Part shown: positions 51,903 to 61,417 of the stretch, in pieces
Layout of the letters: every line of letters begins with the position of its first letter
How positions within the stretch are numbered: position 1 is the stretch's first letter
Source of the DNA: a bacterium
GTDB lineage: Bacteria; Synergistota; GBS-1
Reading direction: 5' to 3'
DNA: 64,000 nucleotides
Assembly (NCBI GenBank): GCA_030153785.1
Contig: JASKLF010000003.1
Span: 93,645-157,644 of the forward strand
Notes under the pieces: model-generated
The model's database searches: none
What the model was told of the DNA's origin: nothing
What the model saw: the letters and a program-made list of their open reading frames with translations, nothing else
Program-made: the position numbers and the translations under genes

Positions 51903-53369
51903 TTACATGCTAACAGCATACTTTTTACCTACCTGATCCCTTATCCTTATATCTACTCCTCTCTGCCTTAACCACTTAGGCAATAGCTCATTTTCAACTT
52001 TCTCGTTAACTTCAGGAGCTTTTTTCAAGAGATATTCAGCTAAAGGTTCACTTAAGTTTATTCCACCTATGGCGCCATCAAAGATGAGCACTTTCCTTGT
52101 TCCCGTAACCTTATAGGCGAACTCCATTGCAGTTTCAAGGTCATCTGCTATTAAAGCATGCTTCATATAGTTTAGGTTCTGAGGATCACGGTTAAACAAA
52201 TCAGCCTGTTCCCTTCCCACAACCACAGTAGGTATATGCTCACTAAAGAAGGCACTCGGATAACCCACCCATGCATAATTATGGATACACATCTTTATCG
52301 CAGGATTGAGAGGAGGAATGTCCTCTAAAAGGGGCTTCCCGTTCTTACCATAGAAAGCTTCCGTATACCACGTATAACTGGGTAAAGGCACACTATCCAA
52401 ATCATAAAGGTCCGTATTAGCTCCAGCAAAATTAGCATATATAACCCCTCCAGCAAAAACATAAACTACGGGGCATGGAAAATCTAAAGCAACTATGCAC
52501 TCATCGATAGAGCCTAAAAGCGTCATCATCTTGCCATAATAGCGACAACCGATAAATGTTATGCGATCATTTAAGGCATAAAGATCGTTATCAGCATCTA
52601 CTCCAATAATTCCGTGGGGAGCCACTGTAAGGAAACAAGCAAAAGCAAACTTCTTTTGAACAAAAGGAGAATCAAAAATGGCCCTAGCTACAAAATTAGC
52701 TGCCCTTGGCCCCATATTTTGATGATAAGTAGATCTGGTTTCAATGCGAGCATAGGACATACCAAAGGGCTTTACCGCTCGATCAACTTGTCTGTGAAAG
52801 TGAACTTCACGCACATCAGAATTATGGGCGTGGACGATCCAATCGGCATCATAAGCCCTCTTTATGCCGTAAAGCGTTCCTATCTCCGTTTCAATAGGTA
52901 CTCCCTCATCAATCGGTGCTATGCCTATAGCTTTACCATTAAAGTACTTATCGAGACCATACCGCTTAATATATTCTTCCGTTTCCCTGAATCTTAAACC
53001 AACACCGGCCCTTAGCCGAATATCCTTACAACCTGTTTTAGCTTGAATTACATCTTTTAACGTTTTAAGCATTTCAGCGTAAGGTTCTCCCCCTAAAAGA
53101 GTGAACCCATGATGGGAAGCTAAGATATTAACCGAGTGCTCGGGTTTTATCATGCTCATATCTACGTGCTTTAAAGCCTCCTCCGTAGCTTTACGAACTG
53201 CCTCGATACCCTTATCAGTTGGATAGATTATATCAGGCATATCAGGAAAGAGCTCCTTTATAAGAACGGAAGTCATGCCCGGAAGTTCCGAAACCCTCTT
53301 TTTGACCAAAGATGGGTCAATGCCATATTGGGACTTACGTGGAGGTATAGGCGGTATAGGAGAACGCAT
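51903..53369 (-). CDS. Hypothetical 488-aa protein, distant LarA-N/DUF2088-like
   Basis: IKPEHSVNILASHHG and AYDADWIV..VKPFGMS..H resemble the IKPG..AITAGSRG / AYEADGII..KM..G..H layout of LarA-N-domain proteins; by-eye match only. Confidence 0.5.
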   Translation of the reverse strand: MRSPIPPIPPRKSQYGIDPSLVKKRVSELPGMTSVLIKELFPDMPDIIYPTDKGIEAVRKATEEALKHVDMSMIKPEHSVNILASHHGFTLLGGEPYAEMLKTLKDVIQAKTGCKDIRLRAGVGLRFRETEEYIKRYGLDKYFNGKAIGIAPIDEGVPIETEIGTLYGIKRAYDADWIVHAHNSDVREVHFHRQVDRAVKPFGMSYARIETRSTYHQNMGPRAANFVARAIFDSPFVQKKFAFACFLTVAPHGIIGVDADNDLYALNDRITFIGCRYYGKMMTLLGSIDECIVALDFPCPVVYVFAGGVIYANFAGANTDLYDLDSVPLPSYTWYTEAFYGKNGKPLLEDIPPLNPAIKMCIHNYAWVGYPSAFFSEHIPTVVVGREQADLFNRDPQNLNYMKHALIADDLETAMEFAYKVTGTRKVLIFDGAIGGINLSEPLAEYLLKKAPEVNEKVENELLPKWLRQRGVDIRIRDQVGKKYAVSM

Positions 53370-53371
53370 CT

Positions 53372-53992
53372 TTACTTCACCCCCCTTCCCTGCAAAGGTG
53401 CTGTTCTAACTCTATCTAACAATTTTTCATCTTCATCAAAATAGAAACCTCTTGAAGAGTGTTTTTCCCGAACCTTTTTAGGGATTTCCCACACAGTCAC
53501 AGTTCTACCATACCATTGCCATCCACCCTGTGGTGGAGTCGATTTAACCCCTGCAGCCTCAAGAAGCCTCAAAATAGGCTGTATACACTCCACCTTACAA
53601 CCCGTTCTAGCACCTGTCATAAAAGAAATATCTTCTGGAGATTTAGCCCCTTTCAGAATTGCAGCAGCTATTTCCTCCGCTCTTGTTCCCGTACAATAAC
53701 AAACTACCTGTTCAGGATGTAAAAGTGCATTGCTACACAATTTCAGTATTTCATCATAATTGACAGAGGCAATATCAACGCTCACTAAGAGCGGGTTATC
53801 TCGCTTTTGCATTGATATAGCGTAAACAGGGCATCTCTGCTCACACGCAGCGCATCCTCTACATCTATCTACATCCACTTCCGCCTTTCCATCCACAACC
53901 TTAATAGCAAGCACAGGACAGACTTTCTCACAGGTTTTACATCCCACACATTTTCCCCTATCAACCTGCGCTATCAAATTAACGAGCTTCAT
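53372..53992 (-). CDS. 2x[4Fe-4S] ferredoxin fused to BFD-like [2Fe-2S] domain
   Basis: CVGCKTCEKVCP, CRGCAACEQRCP, then CYC...CKVEC. Confidence 0.88.
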   Translation of the reverse strand: MKLVNLIAQVDRGKCVGCKTCEKVCPVLAIKVVDGKAEVDVDRCRGCAACEQRCPVYAISMQKRDNPLLVSVDIASVNYDEILKLCSNALLHPEQVVCYCTGTRAEEIAAAILKGAKSPEDISFMTGARTGCKVECIQPILRLLEAAGVKSTPPQGGWQWYGRTVTVWEIPKKVREKHSSRGFYFDEDEKLLDRVRTAPLQGRGVK

Positions 53993-54014
53993 TTTTGCCA
54001 CCCCCCTCAAGCTT

Positions 54015-55034
54015 CTAACCTTTTTCCCTTCTTTGAGAAAGATAATATGCTACATCGATAATCATGTCTTCCTGTCCACCAACCATTTTCCTTCTACCAA
54101 GTTCAACCAAAATATCCCTCGGGTCTAATCCAAACTTTTCAGCTGCCCTATAAGTGTGAAGGAGAAAGCTTGAATATACCCCAGCATAACCCAACATCAA
54201 AGAAGCGTTCTTGATAACCTGTGGCCTCCTCATGACAGGCTCAACGATCTCCTCAGCAACATCCATAATCTTGTAGAAATCAATTCCCGTTTCGTATCCT
54301 GCCTTATCCAAAACGCCGACTAGAACCTCCGTTTGAGTGTTACCAGCTCCCGCACCCAACCCCCTGCAAGTAGCATCTAAAAAGGTTGCTCCTCCCTCAA
54401 GAGCTGCGAGACTGTTAGCAACAGCTAAAGCTAAATTATTATGGGCATGAAATCCCACAGGTATGCTAACCTTATCAACTACGGTTTGAACGTAAACCTT
54501 AACATCTCCAGGAAGCATGGCTCCTGCCGAATCCGCCAAATACACATAATCAGCGCCATAGGACTCAAAAAGCATTGCCTGTTCTGCAACCTTTTCAGGG
54601 GGAACCATGTGAATCATCATCAAGAAACCAAAGGCTTCCATTCCCATTTCCTTAGCCATGCGAATATGCTGTTCACCAATATCCGCCTCTGTAACATGAG
54701 TAGCAATTCTTGCAGCCTTTGCCCCGCAATCCAGCGCAAGCTTGAGCTCCTTACGAGTCCCAATCCCAGGAAGAAGAAGGACGGTTAATTTCCCTTTTTG
54801 AATTACCTCTCCCGCAGCTCTTAACATTTCCTCATCGGTTAACTTAGAAAACCCATAATTGTAAGAAGAACCTCCCAAACCATCCCCGTGCGAGACCTCT
54901 ATATACTCAACTCCAGCTTCATCAAGACCTTTTGCAATTGCCTTTATATCATCTTCAGTAAATTGATGGGAAACAGCGTGACTACCATCACGCAGAGTGG
55001 TATCTACTATGTGAACAAGTTTTTTCCTCGACAC
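54015..55034 (-). CDS. dmpG: 4-hydroxy-2-oxovalerate aldolase
   Basis: [50 protein letters not shown]. Confidence 0.96.
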
Positions 55035-55908
55035 TCCTCATCCCTCCCCTTAACATTCTTATCGCTAACCGTTCAGCCACTGCAACGGCAGCCGCGGTAA
55101 TAATATCGAGGTTACCAGCATACTTGGGTAAGAAATCCCCAGCTCCTTCAACCTCGATTATCGTAGTAACCTTATTCCCGTCCAAAATAGGAGGAACCCT
55201 GAGGCGATATCCAGGAACATATTCTTGAACCTTCTTTACCATGTTAAAAACCGCCTCCTTAATCTTCTCCTCGTTGGGGTCCTCAACCTCCACATAAATG
55301 GTGTCAGTCATTATTATCGGCGGTTCCGCAGGGTTAAGAATTATTATTGCCTTGCCTTTCTTCGCCCCTCCAAGTTTACAAATAGCCTCAGCAGTAGCCT
55401 GGGTAAACTCATCTATATTTTGGCGCGTTCCTGGTCCAGCGCTTTTACTCGCAATAGCCGCAACTATTTCAGCATATTTCGCTCCTGCAACTTGCCCTAT
55501 GGCATAAACTATCGGGATCGTAGCCTGCCCCCCACAAGTAACCAGGTTAAAATTAGAAGCTTCATAAACCTCATCCAAATTAACAACCGGGATAACCTGA
55601 ACACCAATAGCCGCAGGCGTCAAGTCGATGGCTATTTTGCCAGCATCCTCAAGTAGAGGTGCATGTTTAAGATGAGCTTTAGCCGTCGTGGCATCAAAAA
55701 CTATCCTTATATCATCTCTTTCTAAGACCGCATCTATACCCCTCGTGCTCGTTTTAATACCCAGCTTTTCAGCCCTTTTTATACCCTCGGATTCGACAAT
55801 ACCAACCATCATTTCAAGTTGTAGATATGGACTCCTCATTATTTTAAACATTAGATCGGTTCCTATGTTTCCAGGACCCAATATGGCTACTTTTACCCTT
55901 TCTTCCAT
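54988..55908 (-). CDS. dmpF: Acetaldehyde dehydrogenase (acylating)
   Basis: [48 protein letters not shown]. Confidence 0.96.
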
Positions 55909-55933
55909 TCATCTCGCCTCCTAAAAAGCTGAA

Positions 55934-56707
55934 TTATTCAAACAGCACGCTAACTGAACCAAGCTCATAGAAAGAGACAGTAAAAACGTCTCCCTTCTGA
56001 GCATCGAGAGCAGCGGTGAGAGCCCCCGAAAGAATTATCTCCCCAGCCTCCAAACCGATGTCGAACTCGGCAAGCTTGTTTGCCAGCCAAGCCACCGCAG
56101 CAGCAGGATGACCCCATACAGCAGCACCTGCACCTGTGTTCATAACTTTTCCGTTCTTTTCTAAAACCATCCCTATAAGCCTCAAATCCATGTTTTTAAC
56201 CGGCGTAACTTTACTCCCTATAACAAATCTTGCACTGGAAGCATTATCTGCTATTGTATCCTCAAGCTTTATCTTCCAGTCGCGAATTCGGCTATCGACT
56301 ATCTCTATGGCAGGAACGACAAACTCCGTTGCCCTCAGAACATCGGTGATGGTCAATCCTGGCCCCTTTAAGTCACTCTTCAAAACGAAAGCAATTTCTC
56401 CCTCCACCTTAGGTTGAATAAGGTCATCCCTCTTACAAGGCTCACCGCACAAGACAAGCATATTATCTAAAAGGTGACCATAATCAGGCTCGTTCACGCC
56501 AAGCAATTCCTGCATCGCCTTGCTCGTAAGGCCTATTTTCTTGCCGACCACTTTCCTGCCCCGTTCCAGCTTAATCTTTATACCCTCCAACTGAATCTTA
56601 TACGCATCAACCACGCTCAATCCTGGATAGGTCGAAGTAAGAGGCTCGATGGGCTTTCGACTGTTTTCCGCTTCAATCAACCTTAAGGCAACTTCCCTGT
56701 GGTCCAT
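55934..56707 (-). CDS. mhpD: 2-keto-4-pentenoate hydratase (FAH superfamily; 4-oxalocrotonate decarboxylase paralogue not excluded)
   Basis: GKKIGLTS, PDYG, VEGEIAF, EIVDSR, DTIADNAS, WLAN. Confidence 0.88.
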   Translation of the reverse strand: MDHREVALRLIEAENSRKPIEPLTSTYPGLSVVDAYKIQLEGIKIKLERGRKVVGKKIGLTSKAMQELLGVNEPDYGHLLDNMLVLCGEPCKRDDLIQPKVEGEIAFVLKSDLKGPGLTITDVLRATEFVVPAIEIVDSRIRDWKIKLEDTIADNASSARFVIGSKVTPVKNMDLRLIGMVLEKNGKVMNTGAGAAVWGHPAAAVAWLANKLAEFDIGLEAGEIILSGALTAALDAQKGDVFTVSFYELGSVSVLFE

Positions 56708-57602
56708 GAAAATCAGCTCCCTTCCTTGTTTTAGCTTGCCAATGCCTCCTCAAGGCGTTAGCAATTCCCTGAGCTAAGGTTTTATCGTCAACTTCCTTTA
56801 AAAAACACTCCTTGATCACTTGACAAGCAATCTTAACCTCCTCATGGGGCCCCGGTAAAGCTATCAATCTTGTCAAACCTAAACGACCAACCGCTATACG
56901 CACACCCTCTTTATGATGGCGTTTTTTATCCACCTCAAACTTTAGTATCCAAGGAGTATGTGCCTTTGGGTCGAGCCTCAATATGGCCTCTATATTACAA
57001 TCCTTATCTTCCGCCCCAACGCCACCTGTGATGACTATTAAACCAAATCCCTTACTTATAGCATCGTTTAACCTACTTACTACACTGCGAACATCGTCTT
57101 CTAAAACTCCCCCAAACCTCACACTAAACCCCAAATCCTCCAAAAGGCTAATTATGTAAGGAGAGTTTAAATCCCGTATTTTCCCCGATATCAACTCACT
57201 TCCGGATGCAAAAACCAAAGCTCTCATAGAAACATTACTAATTATCTCCGAAGCCATCTGAGCTGACCTTGCAATAACGTCGCTCGCTTCCTCCTCATCC
57301 AGCGCAATAAGGCCTAAAATCCCCTCTGAATGGACTTTAGCTTCAGGAGCCAAGGTCACCCCACTAATGGAGCCCAAGCGCTTTAGCAACTCTCTCTCTT
57401 TTCCAACTATGGCTTCAGCCAATACTTCTTTTTTTAAAACATCGAAAACCACTAAACCTGGTCTTACATCAACAACTATAACTTCACCCGGTTTAAATCC
57501 GAAAACAAAACCTGCCTCCCTTGATAGGTCTTCCAAGTTTACATTAGATAGCTCAATTCCTTCTACCCAAAAAGTAGTTTTCTCTAATAAATCCCATTTC
57601 AT
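56673..57602 (-). CDS. Protein with C-terminal MoCF_biosynth (MogA/MoeA/CinA-N-like) domain and unknown N-terminal domain
   Basis: SGSEL..G...D.N, TGGVGAEDKD, ALPGP. Confidence 0.8.
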   Translation of the reverse strand: MKWDLLEKTTFWVEGIELSNVNLEDLSREAGFVFGFKPGEVIVVDVRPGLVVFDVLKKEVLAEAIVGKERELLKRLGSISGVTLAPEAKVHSEGILGLIALDEEEASDVIARSAQMASEIISNVSMRALVFASGSELISGKIRDLNSPYIISLLEDLGFSVRFGGVLEDDVRSVVSRLNDAISKGFGLIVITGGVGAEDKDCNIEAILRLDPKAHTPWILKFEVDKKRHHKEGVRIAVGRLGLTRLIALPGPHEEVKIACQVIKECFLKEVDDKTLAQGIANALRRHWQAKTRKGADFHGPQGSCLKVD

Positions 57603-57607
57603 TACCC

Positions 57608-58411
57608 TCAGCCTCCCAAAACATCCAAGCTAAAATCCAAGATAGGAGCATCTATGATGGCTCTTCCCACATCAACAATATCAGCACCAGCTTCTATAAC
57701 CTCCTTAAGATTATCTTCTTTTACTCCTCCGCCAAAGGCAATTTTAACTCTATCCCGAAATCCTTTCATAAAAACTACCTTTTTAACATAACTGAGGTCC
57801 CCTAGATTTCCCGTATCCACCATTATTACTCCTGCCCCTTCCCTCAATGCTTCAACAACTTCCTCTTGTAAAGGTGCCGTCTCACCACGTAATTGAACTA
57901 CCACTATCCTACCTTCCACTTCCTTCGCCTTCCTTATAGCGGGAGTTAGTCCCCCAAACATGCGAATATAATTTTTATCCAGATAGACAAACGGCTCTTC
58001 TAAAATCCGAATGCCCGCTCCTCCGATCTTTATAGCTTCCCTGAAATCCTGCCTCACTTCCGGAGGAACCTTCTTCCACGCTCCACAAACAACCCTTATT
58101 CTTCCCTCCGCAATCTTTATCATACGCGCACTTGCTGTAGCTATACCTGATACCTTACCTATCATTCCTAAAAGCCTTTCTTCAGCTAAAGCTATCTGCC
58201 AGGCATTACCCTTTCCTCGAAAAACAACGTCCCCCTTTTCTAAAACTGCACCCTCCTTCTTAACATAATCCACAATTAGACCTATTTTTCCCGCTTCTTC
58301 TGTAAGCCTTTTAATACCTGCTAATACTCCATTCTCCTTCACCCTTATTTCAAATGTATAAAATCTTCCAACCAATGGCTCGAACAGAAAATCCCTTATA
58401 TCCATCTTCAT
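57608..58411 (-). CDS. NadC/ModD-like type II phosphoribosyltransferase
   Basis: GVLAG..EG..GD..G...AEE..SGIAT, AIKIGG, VDTG, GGV, GADIVDVG. Confidence 0.8.
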   Translation of the reverse strand: MKMDIRDFLFEPLVGRFYTFEIRVKENGVLAGIKRLTEEAGKIGLIVDYVKKEGAVLEKGDVVFRGKGNAWQIALAEERLLGMIGKVSGIATASARMIKIAEGRIRVVCGAWKKVPPEVRQDFREAIKIGGAGIRILEEPFVYLDKNYIRMFGGLTPAIRKAKEVEGRIVVVQLRGETAPLQEEVVEALREGAGVIMVDTGNLGDLSYVKKVVFMKGFRDRVKIAFGGGVKEDNLKEVIEAGADIVDVGRAIIDAPILDFSLDVLGG

Positions 58412-58421
58412 CCCCTATTTA

Positions 58422-58448
58422 TTCTACATTATAGAAATACTTTCTATA
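58422..58448 (-). promoter_or_regulatory. Overlapping palindromic operator(s), probable IclR site
   Basis: TTCTACATTATAGAA (58422-58436) and TATAGAAA-TAC-TTTCTATA (58430-58448) between promoter and RBS. Confidence 0.6.
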
Positions 58449-58464
58449 TTACCCCCCCGATATA

Positions 58465-58493
58465 ATAATAGCAACCTGCCTACTAAAAGTCAA
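58465..58493 (-). promoter_or_regulatory. Sigma-70/A promoter of the nadC-like..larC operon
   Basis: TTGACT-N17-TATTAT. Confidence 0.75.
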
Positions 58494-58587
58494 CTACCTC
58501 GCAAAAACCAGAAAAACGATGCTTCAGGTATAAGAGAAACCCTATCAAACTATGTCTCACGTAATAATCGCAATAAACCTCTTAGTG

Positions 58588-59013
58588 CTATAATCTCAAA
58601 TCTATTATGGCGCTCACTCCCACTCCCTGAACCCTTCTAAATCTCTCCAACGGATTTTCAGAGTCTATGGGAATCATTATGTTTACTCTAAATTTACCCT
58701 GAAAAGATACATCAAGTCTTGCAACAGCTTTGGTTTTTGCAACAGCATCACGAGGCCCTGAAACTTGAGCAGCTCCTATATAAACCCCACTTCCAACGCT
58801 TACGATAGGAACTACCTTCGTAGCATACGCATTTTTAACTCCCTTGTTTATCGTTACTTCGTTAATGAAAGAGTTGATTGGCTCAGCAAAGGTTTTTACC
58901 AACAATCCCCCTCCAACTACACCTATCAGCTCTTTAACCCCAACAGGATAAGCAATACTTGAAACTAAAAGAATCATGACCAAAGCTAACAGAACCAGCT
59001 TTCTCTTAATCAT
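58588..59013 (-). CDS. Hypothetical exported protein
   Basis: N-terminal signal peptide; TKVVPIVSVG..IGAAQVSGP..GVGVSAIID; good SD. Confidence 0.75.
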   Translation of the reverse strand: MIKRKLVLLALVMILLVSSIAYPVGVKELIGVVGGGLLVKTFAEPINSFINEVTINKGVKNAYATKVVPIVSVGSGVYIGAAQVSGPRDAVAKTKAVARLDVSFQGKFRVNIMIPIDSENPLERFRRVQGVGVSAIIDLRL

Positions 59014-59034
59014 TAAGGGTCACCTCCACTAAAG

Positions 59035-59065
59035 AAAATAAAAAGGGGAGCTCAAAGCCCCCCTT
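59035..59065 (-). terminator. Intrinsic terminator after the IclR gene
   Basis: AAGGGGGGCT-TTG-AGCTCCCCTT-TTTATTTT. Confidence 0.75.
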
Positions 59066-59106
59066 GAGTTTCACAAAACTCAAAAGCCAGAAGGAAAAAA
59101 CTAATT

Positions 59107-59889
59107 TTAATGAGCGTCCCCCATTGGTCTATAACCCATCTCCATAGATATGGCAGAAGCTGTTGCCACAACCAGCTCTACAGCCTTTTTAAGTTTCTCC
59201 CCCCTTAAACGAGATGTAGGCCCCGAAATGCTTATAGCTGCGCAGACCTTACCCGTATAATCTCTTATAGGAGCAGCAATACATTTTAACCCCTCCATAA
59301 ATTCCTCGTTATCAAAGGCATATCCCTGTTCTCTAATTTTCGCAAGCTCAGCCTCCAATACCTCTGGATCAGTAATGGTGTTTCTGGTAAATCTCTTTAA
59401 ACCCTTTTCAGCTATTATTTTTTTGCGCTCCTCGGCAGGCAAAAAGGCTAATAACACCTTACCTACTCCCGTACAATGAGCGGGAAGTCTCGCCCCAACC
59501 CTTGAAGCTATCCTTATAGATTGCTGGCTCTCACGTTTATCTATGTGTAGAACCTCCCCCTTGTCAAGAATGGTTAAATGAACAGTCTCCTCCATTTCCT
59601 CCACAAGCTTTTGAATATAAGGAGCAGCGATATTTTTTATTTCCAACCTTTGAGCCACTATATTGCCTAACTCAAAAAGCTTAAATCCCAGCTTGTATTT
59701 TCCGGTTATAGGAGATTGGTCAATATATCCAAAATCACAAAGAGTGGAAATGAGACCATGGGTAGTGCTCTTGGGCATTCTCATCTTCTCTGCTATCTCT
59801 CCCAAGGCCATCTCTCCCGCATCTTTAGCCAATATTTCAACTATTTTTAACGCTTTAGCTACCGATTCTATTCGATACTCCTTCTCCAT
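59107..59889 (-). CDS. IclR-family transcriptional regulator
   Basis: SVAKALKI..MPKSTTHGL HTH, HCTGVGKVLLA, GYAFDNEE, AAISISGP. Confidence 0.96.
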   Translation of the reverse strand: MEKEYRIESVAKALKIVEILAKDAGEMALGEIAEKMRMPKSTTHGLISTLCDFGYIDQSPITGKYKLGFKLFELGNIVAQRLEIKNIAAPYIQKLVEEMEETVHLTILDKGEVLHIDKRESQQSIRIASRVGARLPAHCTGVGKVLLAFLPAEERKKIIAEKGLKRFTRNTITDPEVLEAELAKIREQGYAFDNEEFMEGLKCIAAPIRDYTGKVCAAISISGPTSRLRGEKLKKAVELVVATASAISMEMGYRPMGDAH

Positions 59890-59961: not shown

Positions 59962-61203
59962 TTATTCTCTAACAAATCTTTTCGCTTTACCAGGCGATCT
60001 CTCAAGGCTACCCGGTGGTAGCAAAGTAATATCTACTGTCACTCCGAGTTTATCCTTCAAGGTCTTAGAAACCCTCGCCGTAAGCTCGCCTACATCCCCA
60101 CTAAAACCATTGGAAAGCTCACATCTAATTTCAAGTCTCTTTAAATGTTTTCTTTCTCCAACCACAAGCTGGTAGTTCAAGCTTAGCTCTCTAAATGTGC
60201 CTAATATCGACTCTATCTGCTGTGGGAAAACATTAACACCTCGGATTATAAGCATGTCATCGGTCCTTCCCTTTACTCTTTCCATCTTTAGTCCAGAAAG
60301 CCCACAAGCGCATTCATCGCGGAATAATCTCGTTATGTCTCTCGTCCTATACCTTATCATGGGAGTTGCTTCCCTATTAAGCGTAGTTATAACAAGCTCT
60401 CCTTCCTCCCCTAAGGGAAGGGGTTTTAAGGTGTGTGGGTCAATAATTTCCATTATGAAGTAATCCTCCCTTATATGCAATCCGTTTTTACAAGGACACT
60501 CAATAGCAACCCCTGGCCCCCATATTTCACTTAAACCATAGCAATCAAGCGCAATTATTCCCAAGCCCCTCTCTATCTGAGCTCTCATCTCTTCGCTCCA
60601 GGGCTCCCCGCCAAATATTCCTAAGCGAAGCTTAAGTTTATCCGGAGATATTCCTTTTTCAGCCAAAACTTCGGCAAGATAAAGGGCGTAACTGGGAGTG
60701 CAAGTGAGAGCGGTAGTTCCCAAATCCAGCATGAGCTCTATCTGTCTTTCAGTATGACCTCCAGAGGCCGGAATTATACAGCAACCGATACGCTCAGCTC
60801 CATAGTGATAACCGAAAGAACCTGTAAAAAGACCGTAATTATAAGATATCTGAAATATGTCCTCCTTCTTCAAGCCCGCTATCTGAAGACACCAAGCCAT
60901 AAGCTCGGCCCATTTATCTAAATCACCATGGGTATAGCTTACAACAGTAGGTTTTCCGGTAGTTCCCGAAGAACAATGGATTCTAACTACATCATCGAGG
61001 TCAACCGCCGTTACTCTCCATGGATACCCCTTTCTCAAATCATCCTTCGTCATGAAAGGAAGATATTTAATATCATCAAGGCTCTGAATATCTTCAGGTT
61101 TAATCCCAGCCTCGTTCATCTTCTCCCTATACCAGGGATAACCATTATAAGCCTTTCTGAGACTTTCCTTAAAGGCATTAAACCGATTATTAGGATCAAC
61201 CAT
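59962..61203 (-). CDS. paaK: Phenylacetate-CoA ligase family (arylacetate-CoA ligase)
   Basis: LPFMTKDDLR, SSGTTGKP, YGLFTG, YGLSE, RYRTRD, GRTDDMLIIRGVNVFP, GKAKR. Confidence 0.92.
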   Translation of the reverse strand: MVDPNNRFNAFKESLRKAYNGYPWYREKMNEAGIKPEDIQSLDDIKYLPFMTKDDLRKGYPWRVTAVDLDDVVRIHCSSGTTGKPTVVSYTHGDLDKWAELMAWCLQIAGLKKEDIFQISYNYGLFTGSFGYHYGAERIGCCIIPASGGHTERQIELMLDLGTTALTCTPSYALYLAEVLAEKGISPDKLKLRLGIFGGEPWSEEMRAQIERGLGIIALDCYGLSEIWGPGVAIECPCKNGLHIREDYFIMEIIDPHTLKPLPLGEEGELVITTLNREATPMIRYRTRDITRLFRDECACGLSGLKMERVKGRTDDMLIIRGVNVFPQQIESILGTFRELSLNYQLVVGERKHLKRLEIRCELSNGFSGDVGELTARVSKTLKDKLGVTVDITLLPPGSLERSPGKAKRFVRE

Positions 61204-61228
61204 ATTTTAAAACCCCCTCTTCTCATAT

Positions 61229-61271
61229 AATTAAAGCCGGGGGCTCCACCCTTTGATGAAGCCCCCGGCTT
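61229..61271 (-). terminator. Attenuator terminator hairpin upstream of paaK
   Basis: AAGCCGGGGGCTTCA-TCAAAGGG-TGGAGCCCCCGGCTT-TAATT. Confidence 0.75.
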
Positions 61272-61308
61272 ATCTCGGCTTAATACGAAGCCAGCCTTAC
61301 CCGCCCTC

Positions 61309-61377
61309 TTAAGCCGGAGCCCCTTTATGCCTATAATAATAAAAATAATAGCGACCGCTTCCCTTTACCACCCACAT
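61309..61377 (-). CDS. Tyr/Phe-rich leader peptide MWVVKGSGRYYFYYYRHKGAPA
   Basis: 22-codon ORF between promoter and terminator with TAT TAT TTT TAT TAT TAT. Confidence 0.75.
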   Translation of the reverse strand: MWVVKGSGRYYFYYYRHKGAPA

Positions 61378-61387
61378 CTTAAACTAA

Positions 61388-61417
61388 ATTATATACTCAA
61401 AAAGAAAAATTTGTCAA
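61388..61417 (-). promoter_or_regulatory. Sigma-70/A promoter for leader-paaK
   Basis: Consensus TTGACA-N18-TATAAT. Confidence 0.85.

Follow-up and report, generated by a model that had tools for sequence, protein, structure and literature searches.

What controls the gene for the PaaK-like aryl-acetate CoA ligase at 59962..61203, and which pathway does this enzyme serve? The gene lies on the minus strand, as do all features of the leader described below, of a 64,000-nucleotide stretch of DNA (the window, meaning the whole stretch analysed) from a bacterium of GBS-1, which we take to be a deep group of the Synergistota. A sequence-only reading had proposed that a Tyr/Phe leader peptide attenuates transcription of this gene, and had assigned the ligase to biosynthesis. 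The promoter that it named, TTGACA-N18-TATAAT, occupies 61388..61417, is of the sigma70 type and scores 12/12 against the consensus. The near-leaderless start codon was likewise recovered: the ATG at 61377 stands 10 nt past the -10 box without an SD sequence, and a transcription start 6-7 nt past that box would fall 3-4 nt 5' of the ATG. It opens a leader ORF of 22 codons plus TAA (61309..61377), translated as MWVVKGSGRYYFYYYRHKGAPA and a stop, in which codons 10-15 (61333..61350) form the expected sensor run Tyr-Tyr-Phe-Tyr-Tyr-Tyr. For this leader, scarcity of tRNA-Phe is likely to matter less than that of tRNA-Tyr.

The end of the leader ORF had been described as complementary to the 5' arm of a terminator, and folding bears this out. 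Segment A (61311..61323), the 5' strand of the predicted antiterminator, comprises the last four leader codons and part of the stop codon. When the transcript reaches no further than the 5' arm of the terminator (from 61271) and the ribosome stands on Tyr10-Tyr15, it pairs with that arm at a probability of 0.88-0.95, and the pairing is kept in 7 family copies. The terminator is a hairpin of 17 bp at 61234..61271 (5' arm 61271-61255, loop 61254-61251, 3' arm 61250-61234). The U-rich tail at 61228..61235 is weak in sequence, with 5 U of 8 against a mean of about 7 of 8 in copies of other families; 3' of the stem the tail reads UUUAAUUA, and a consensus terminator scanner called no terminator at the window leader. 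In the minimum-energy fold of the full leader, segment A has an alternative partner at 61274..61283, and this hairpin is compatible with the terminator, both being present in that full-length fold. The SD-like purine run of the ligase gene (61213..61220) lies 3' of the terminator and, by sequence and fold, outside both helices.

Growing transcripts were folded with the ribosome modelled as a mask that extends 12 nt, counted from the A-site codon's first base, which is an assumed footprint. With this footprint, the antiterminator strand begins just past the stalled ribosome, and antiterminator and terminator are mutually exclusive. On the shorter transcript that stops at the 5' arm, with the ribosome on Arg16, one codon past the run, the probability of antiterminator pairing is 0.10, and further on it is 0. 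On the full transcript the terminator is favoured at equilibrium (0.98) whatever the position of the ribosome, and antitermination must therefore be kinetic. The protector-like hairpin with 61283-61274 was seen solely in longer transcripts of the window leader. The leader region as a whole folds with z = -4.4, and 0/200 shuffles were equally stable. Across seven family copies, the terminator is paired in 105/105 cells, with compensatory change at four pairs; the antiterminator is paired in 90/91 cells, with one-sided changes only and no two-sided compensatory change among these seven copies. Since segment A resembles the terminator 3' arm, part of its pairing with the 5' arm follows from this likeness.

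We consider it highly probable, judging from sequence and predicted folds, that leader and helices constitute a ribosome-stalling transcription attenuator of the ligase gene that is switched on when charged tRNA-Tyr is scarce. A shortage of tyrosine would make a ribosome that has initiated at the SD-less ATG pause on the Tyr/Phe run. Segment A, still uncovered, could then pair with the 5' arm of the terminator once this arm emerges. The antiterminator helix would have to hold kinetically until the polymerase has passed the U-tail, and the ligase gene would be transcribed. With tyrosine plentiful, the ribosome would move on and cover segment A, and the terminator would form. In Escherichia coli, pheL-pheA, pheM-pheST and trpL likewise combine a short ORF carrying a run of cognate codons with mutually exclusive antiterminator and terminator, and are on at starvation. 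The window leader shares the cognate-codon ORF, the exclusive helices and, by prediction, the response to starvation with these systems. Unlike them, it is dominated by Tyr, precedes an aryl-CoA ligase gene, lacks an SD sequence and has no match in Rfam. A 1:2 hairpin enclosing the codon run, as in the trpL kind, is not clearly seen, and without a ribosome the window leader is predicted to form the antiterminator first (0.92), which is the opposite of trp superattenuation. A search of the 64 kb window at Rfam gathering scores, covering Phe_leader, T-box and others, gave no match, and a T-box was ruled out by this result and by length.

The regions upstream of homologous ligase genes show the same plan as the window leader, which we refer to as the RNA frame. 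To exclude the sensor codons, a profile built from 28 copies was made to begin 2 nt 5' of the GGG core. The resulting model (R1) holds only 5 base pairs, the alignment registers having differed; it works as a sequence profile and lends no support to the structure. The profile search returned 357 matches in 97 of 150 Synergistota genomes, with three copies at profile threshold in the window genome. The copies analysed were the best 150 of these 357 matches plus the window copy, minus two duplicates. All 149 carry a leader ORF running through the core, compared with a mean of 36 and a maximum of 49 in 200 shuffles under a codon-blind rule. A strict scan of the window genome for a 10-nt motif had found a terminator 3' of only two copies, both at paaK. 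A looser IUPAC pattern, run over 151 genomes, was rejected except as a lead, chance matches swamping the GC-rich genomes and controls being as high as the signal.

The codons of these leaders follow the pathway of the gene behind them. Over the 10 codons 5' of the core, the paaK copies (n=47) hold 3.9 Tyr+Phe codons per 10 in frame versus 1.2 off frame, and 1.1 for Ile+Leu+Val; orthologous leaders thus keep their Tyr/Phe codons in the reading frame. The ilvH copies (n=47) hold 7.2 Ile+Leu+Val and 0.0 Tyr+Phe codons. One paaK copy (L035), placed in the wrong frame by the automatic rule, stays in the n=47 counts, where it lowers the paaK mean; it was left out of the counts of spacing and codon usage (n=46), and its frame was set by hand in the ligase table. 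Codons and target agree in all 29 genomes that have both paaK and ilvH copies, these genomes being kin and hence not independent. Agreement extends to the 123 non-seed copies, with a paaK mean of 3.7 Tyr+Phe and at least two Tyr/Phe codons in 30/30. Synonymous codons are both used in the paaK leaders (TAT 48, TAC 21, TTT 67, TTC 46). An antiterminator of at least 5 pairs is predicted with a stalled ribosome in 44/46 paaK copies, and the Tyr/Phe run ends 8 nt 5' of the antiterminator strand in 41/46, compared with 9 nt in the window. Among the analysed copies, Met/Cys codons precede NlpA/MetQ-type genes (metQ, n=5), Leu codons LeuC-type genes (n=3), Val codons panB (n=2) and Ile codons threonine dehydratase-like genes (n=4). 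Phe codons precede a gene for a solute-binding-fold protein beside tyrA (n=3) in genomes without prephenate dehydratase (PDT), and this protein is probably PheC. The exchange of Tyr/Phe for the cognate codons before ilvH, metQ, leuC and panB supports the attenuator that the sequence-only reading had proposed. These smaller target classes are all supply genes with the same geometry, which argues for the same sign of control, that is, on at starvation.

Which substrate the ligase activates is suggested by the leaders themselves. The window enzyme (413 aa, Ser129 and Gly199 in our residue table) is homologous over its full length to Burkholderia cenocepacia PaaK1/PaaK2 (2Y27, 2Y4O) and a Bacteroides ligase (4R1L), with E values of 1.5e-119 to 4R1L and 8.9e-116 to 2Y27. 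It scores 487.2 bits against TIGR02155, the PaaK equivalog, below the cut-off of 646.3, and by this measure it is a PaaK-like homologue and no certified PaaK. The same genome holds a paralog with 73% identity, preceded by a Phe-dominated, SD-less leader (contig C1:143254-143350, minus). Among 50 leader-bearing ligases, residue 129 (in FTG-A/S) is Ala or Ser in 22 and Gly in 28. A Tyr-Tyr run is found in the leaders of 20/22 Ala/Ser129 enzymes and 0/28 Gly129 enzymes, and at least two Tyr codons in 22/22 versus 2/28; residue 199 is Gly in 17/22 versus 2/28. All 14 genomes with two ligases combine one Tyr-run leader with Ala/Ser129 and one Phe-dominated leader with Gly129. Residues 129 and 199 presumably correspond to positions lining the aryl pocket in the PaaK1/PaaK2 structures. 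According to the accessible parts of the literature on the two Burkholderia paralogs, differences in this pocket go with substrate range (PMC4498308, PMC9493321, PMC9516798).

In the ligase tree, the window enzyme groups with its Phe-type paralog, apart from the other Tyr-type enzymes. The tree of 57 rows gives two origins of the Tyr type and a subset of 24 rows three changes; a single origin is rejected (p-AU 1e-43, for a group named after the first tree had been seen). On these trees the Tyr type has arisen at least twice, and the correlation between pocket and leader, resting on two (up to three) independent events, is suggestive and not proof. We therefore predict, from Ser129 and the Tyr-run leader, that the window enzyme is a ligase for 4-hydroxyphenylacetate and passes the CoA ester on to IorAB for tyrosine salvage. 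We rate a preference for the 4-hydroxy substrate at somewhat better than even. The window ligase should then favour 4-hydroxyphenylacetate and the paralog phenylacetate; residue 129 (and 199) should decide between the two. If so, leader codons would reveal the substrate of an enzyme, here a dedicated 4-hydroxyphenylacetate-CoA ligase for tyrosine synthesis.

The route by which such a ligase would supply amino acids is known from rumen bacteria and methanococci, where a ligase, IOR and an aminotransferase lead from aryl acids to aromatic amino acids, and IOR takes part in the conversion of phenylacetate to Phe. Synthesis of Phe from phenylacetate in rumen anaerobes is cited in the accessible part of a published account (PMC7356843). 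The window genome encodes the iorAB pair that the sequence-only reading had suggested looking for: iorA (C13:104767-106554) scores over the TIGR03336 cut-off and has an iorB-like gene adjacent. IorAB would carboxylate the aryl-acetyl-CoA ester to the 2-oxo acid, which an aminotransferase would convert to the amino acid; the window ligase would activate 4-hydroxyphenylacetate and its Phe-leader paralog phenylacetate. The genome also encodes PDT, prephenate dehydrogenase (PDH) and EPSP synthase, and the arylacetate route would therefore be one of salvage and not the sole source. The proposed biosynthetic role thus stands as a plausible one in this narrower form. Chorismate synthase was not found in the window genome (95.7% complete) and is present in all three family relatives. 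We surveyed 40 hand-picked genomes, 32 of them with a paaK leader, and found IorA in 40/40, PDT in 23/40, PDH in 25/40 and chorismate synthase in 24/40. None of PDT, PDH and chorismate synthase was found in 12 of the 32 paaK-leader genomes (two of the 12 being single-contig and 99% complete, and one having a broken paaK), where the arylacetate route could be the sole internal source of Phe and Tyr and could underlie cross-feeding on aromatic acids. Control that is on at starvation, together with IOR, fits the salvage reading. We regard a role of the ligase in salvage for aromatic amino-acid supply as fairly likely, and attenuation combined with tyrosine salvage through this ligase as probable and the best explanation of the locus as a whole. 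In this phylum, whose members ferment amino acids, genes annotated as phenylacetate catabolism would then probably serve amino-acid supply.

The gene neighbourhoods contain further observations. On the 3' side of the ligase gene, a block at 51903-59889 (minus) encodes an IclR regulator, NadC-like, MoeA-domain and 2-oxopentenoate hydratase-like proteins, acetaldehyde dehydrogenase, 4-hydroxy-2-oxovalerate aldolase, a ferredoxin and a 488-aa protein without an NCBIfam match, and is partly conserved in two relatives. Directly 5' of iorAB lies a gene for a YbgC/FadM thioesterase (locus with iorAB at contig C13:104188-106958), which is itself preceded by tRNA-like and SRP-like RNA sequence, these RNAs having been identified by eye.

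It is conceivable, and in our view unlikely, that the attenuator is real while the ligase serves catabolism, detoxification or recycling of aromatic acids, perhaps together with the downstream IclR, hydratase, aldolase and acetaldehyde dehydrogenase genes. These genes resemble a lower meta-cleavage pathway, the window genome probably allows de novo synthesis of Phe and Tyr, and an acyl-CoA thioesterase 5' of iorAB, which in this genome has no leader of the RNA frame, suits the catabolic direction. However, a hairpin with a U-tail follows iclR, and the neighbourhoods of the paralog and of homologues from other families are unrelated. Moreover, none of three families of ring-attacking enzymes (paaA, bcrB, hcrA) had a match in the window genome at 95.7% completeness, and the geometry of the leader predicts expression at starvation, like that of the ilv, leu and met copies. 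Burkholderia PaaK1/PaaK2 belong to a catabolic paa pathway; the window ligase differs in its score below the cut-off, in the lack of a paaA match and in its amino-acid-starvation leader.

Whether an SD-less leader can support attenuation is the second point to be weighed. In the window genome's family, all seven paaK leaders lack an SD sequence, with the ATG 10-14 nt past the -10 box of a similar promoter. In other families, an SD-like word stands 5' of the chosen start in 41/43 paaK and 43/43 ilvH leaders, a generous count, the start having been chosen partly by that word. Seen against the other copies of the RNA frame, the window copy is divergent, with a degenerate palindrome, an early stop, no SD sequence and a weak U-tail. 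A survey of consensus promoters in the window genome showed no general leaderless trend, its 37 sites being too few to judge. No RNA was listed among the sequencing runs, and three runs of contigs, probably DNA, gave no coverage of the leader, which speaks neither for nor against its transcription. The leader might thus be poorly translated or vestigial and the hairpin a leaky, fixed terminator, with the ligase unregulated by amino-acid supply. Both the absence of an SD sequence in seven of seven copies and the weak U-tail with a terminator favoured at equilibrium would agree with this. We nevertheless consider it quite improbable: despite their diverged sequences, all seven copies keep the ATG, an open frame of 17-24 codons, the Tyr/Phe run and both helices, and Tyr-run versus Phe-dominated leaders track the ligase clade within the family. 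The leader also goes with the ligase, the upstream gene differing between relatives. The leaders show no conservation of residues other than those of the run, and in one orthologue the leader stops two codons past the Tyr run, where the terminating ribosome still sits on segment A. If the starvation-responsive attenuator operates here, its SD-less form would show if the coupling of leaderless-type initiation with transcription can be tight enough for attenuation.

The RNA frame is very probably the PBC-10 motif (Stav 2019, PMC6429828), matched here by its description and not against the published consensus. In the accessible part of that source, PBC-10 is a motif of Synergistaceae consisting of a terminator with alternative structures and a palindrome at the base of the first stem. 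It occurs in several copies per genome, most commonly before ilvH and phenylacetate-CoA ligase genes. In its Table S1, 1252 nt separate the end of the seed region from the region listed next, and the upstream gene of the latter is a phenylacetate-CoA ligase gene. The RNA frame shares the ilvH and paaK targets, the strand, the presence of several copies per genome (three in the window genome) and the terminator with alternative structure and first-stem palindrome, which is degenerate in the window copy. This fit supports the placement in the Synergistota. The published examples number 53-58 in the part available, versus the 357 matches found here. PBC-10 was read there as protein-binding, and the accessible text mentions no leader ORF. 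A literature search, with most subscription journals outside its reach, found no leader peptide for PBC-10 and no Tyr/Phe attenuator on paaK. The suggestion that such an attenuator had not been described has to be narrowed to the leader-peptide reading; the RNA itself very probably entered the 2019 catalogue, where paaK is among the main targets.

In the protein-binding reading, a protein dimer bound at the first-stem palindrome (or at the UAU/UUU repeats) would block the terminator. It was put forward in the accessible part of PMC6429828, and the palindrome GGGWCCC is conserved in many copies. It leaves unexplained, however, why in-frame codon runs change with the target pathway, why both synonymous codons are used and why ORFs run through 149 of 149 analysed copies. 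In the window, moreover, the palindrome is degenerate, and its pairing with the terminator arm is enough to explain it. We regard protein binding as very improbable here. Scarcely credible is a tnaC-like arrest of the nascent peptide that responds to a surplus of aromatic amino acid by inducing a catabolic ligase: PaaK is usually catabolic according to the part of PMC4498308 available, but a ribosome at or near the stop codon would cover segment A and favour termination, a strong intrinsic hairpin is present, and the unconserved residues outside the run and the early-stopping orthologue both speak against it.

Ribosome-mediated attenuation would explain how a published RNA motif works. Predicted uORFs with Phe/Tyr codons and terminators have been reported before, namely uORF-12 and uORF-13 in Firmicutes (PMC6429828) and uORFC-13-1 in Acholeplasma (PMC8632094). 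As far as the accessible parts of these sources show, they resemble the window leader in lying 5' of genes for aromatic amino-acid supply; they belong to other phyla and precede shikimate or transporter genes and not a CoA ligase gene, a comparison made without their RNA structures. The mechanism itself is textbook, and the new parts are the SD-less form and the Tyr/Phe pairing of paralogs with repeated pocket change. Tentatively, and at a little under an even chance, we posit a paired salvage in Synergistota, in which a Phe-attenuated phenylacetate ligase and a Tyr-attenuated 4-hydroxyphenylacetate ligase operate together. Sensor codons and pocket residue would have undergone joint change in at least two independent events, the second of them in the deep family of the window genome, in which a nearly leaderless form of the leader arose as well.

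Several minor observations were made alongside. Upstream of paaK homologues in other phyla, a Tyr/Phe-rich short ORF was found at 2 of 74 loci, one of them with hairpins; this locus, in a Syntrophobacteraceae genome, has a Phe-rich short ORF and a different RNA frame. Small ORFs of 46-75 aa lie directly 3' of Ile/Leu/Val-leader copies at 20 loci in 19 genomes and end in an almost invariant RGPFEG-x-R-stop. None occurs in the window genome, and they gave no Pfam match (three tested) and no atlas match >0.81; the fixed C-terminus suggests, speculatively, a small regulator or an arrest peptide. In one genome (G125:C1:2316538-2316873), two tandem copies of the RNA frame, 241 nt apart, precede a short ACT-domain gene. 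The RNA frame also precedes genes for uncharacterised membrane proteins without a Pfam or NCBIfam match; their leaders are of the Ile/Leu/Val, the aromatic (Phe/Tyr/Trp) or the Ile kind and give a hint of the cargo. Within the window genome, an SD-led Ile/Leu/Val leader in the RNA frame precedes ilvH-ilvB-ilvC-leuA (contig C1:11325-11433, minus), and three consecutive Trp codons with hairpins, below the profile threshold, precede trpE (contig C9:70302-70397, minus).
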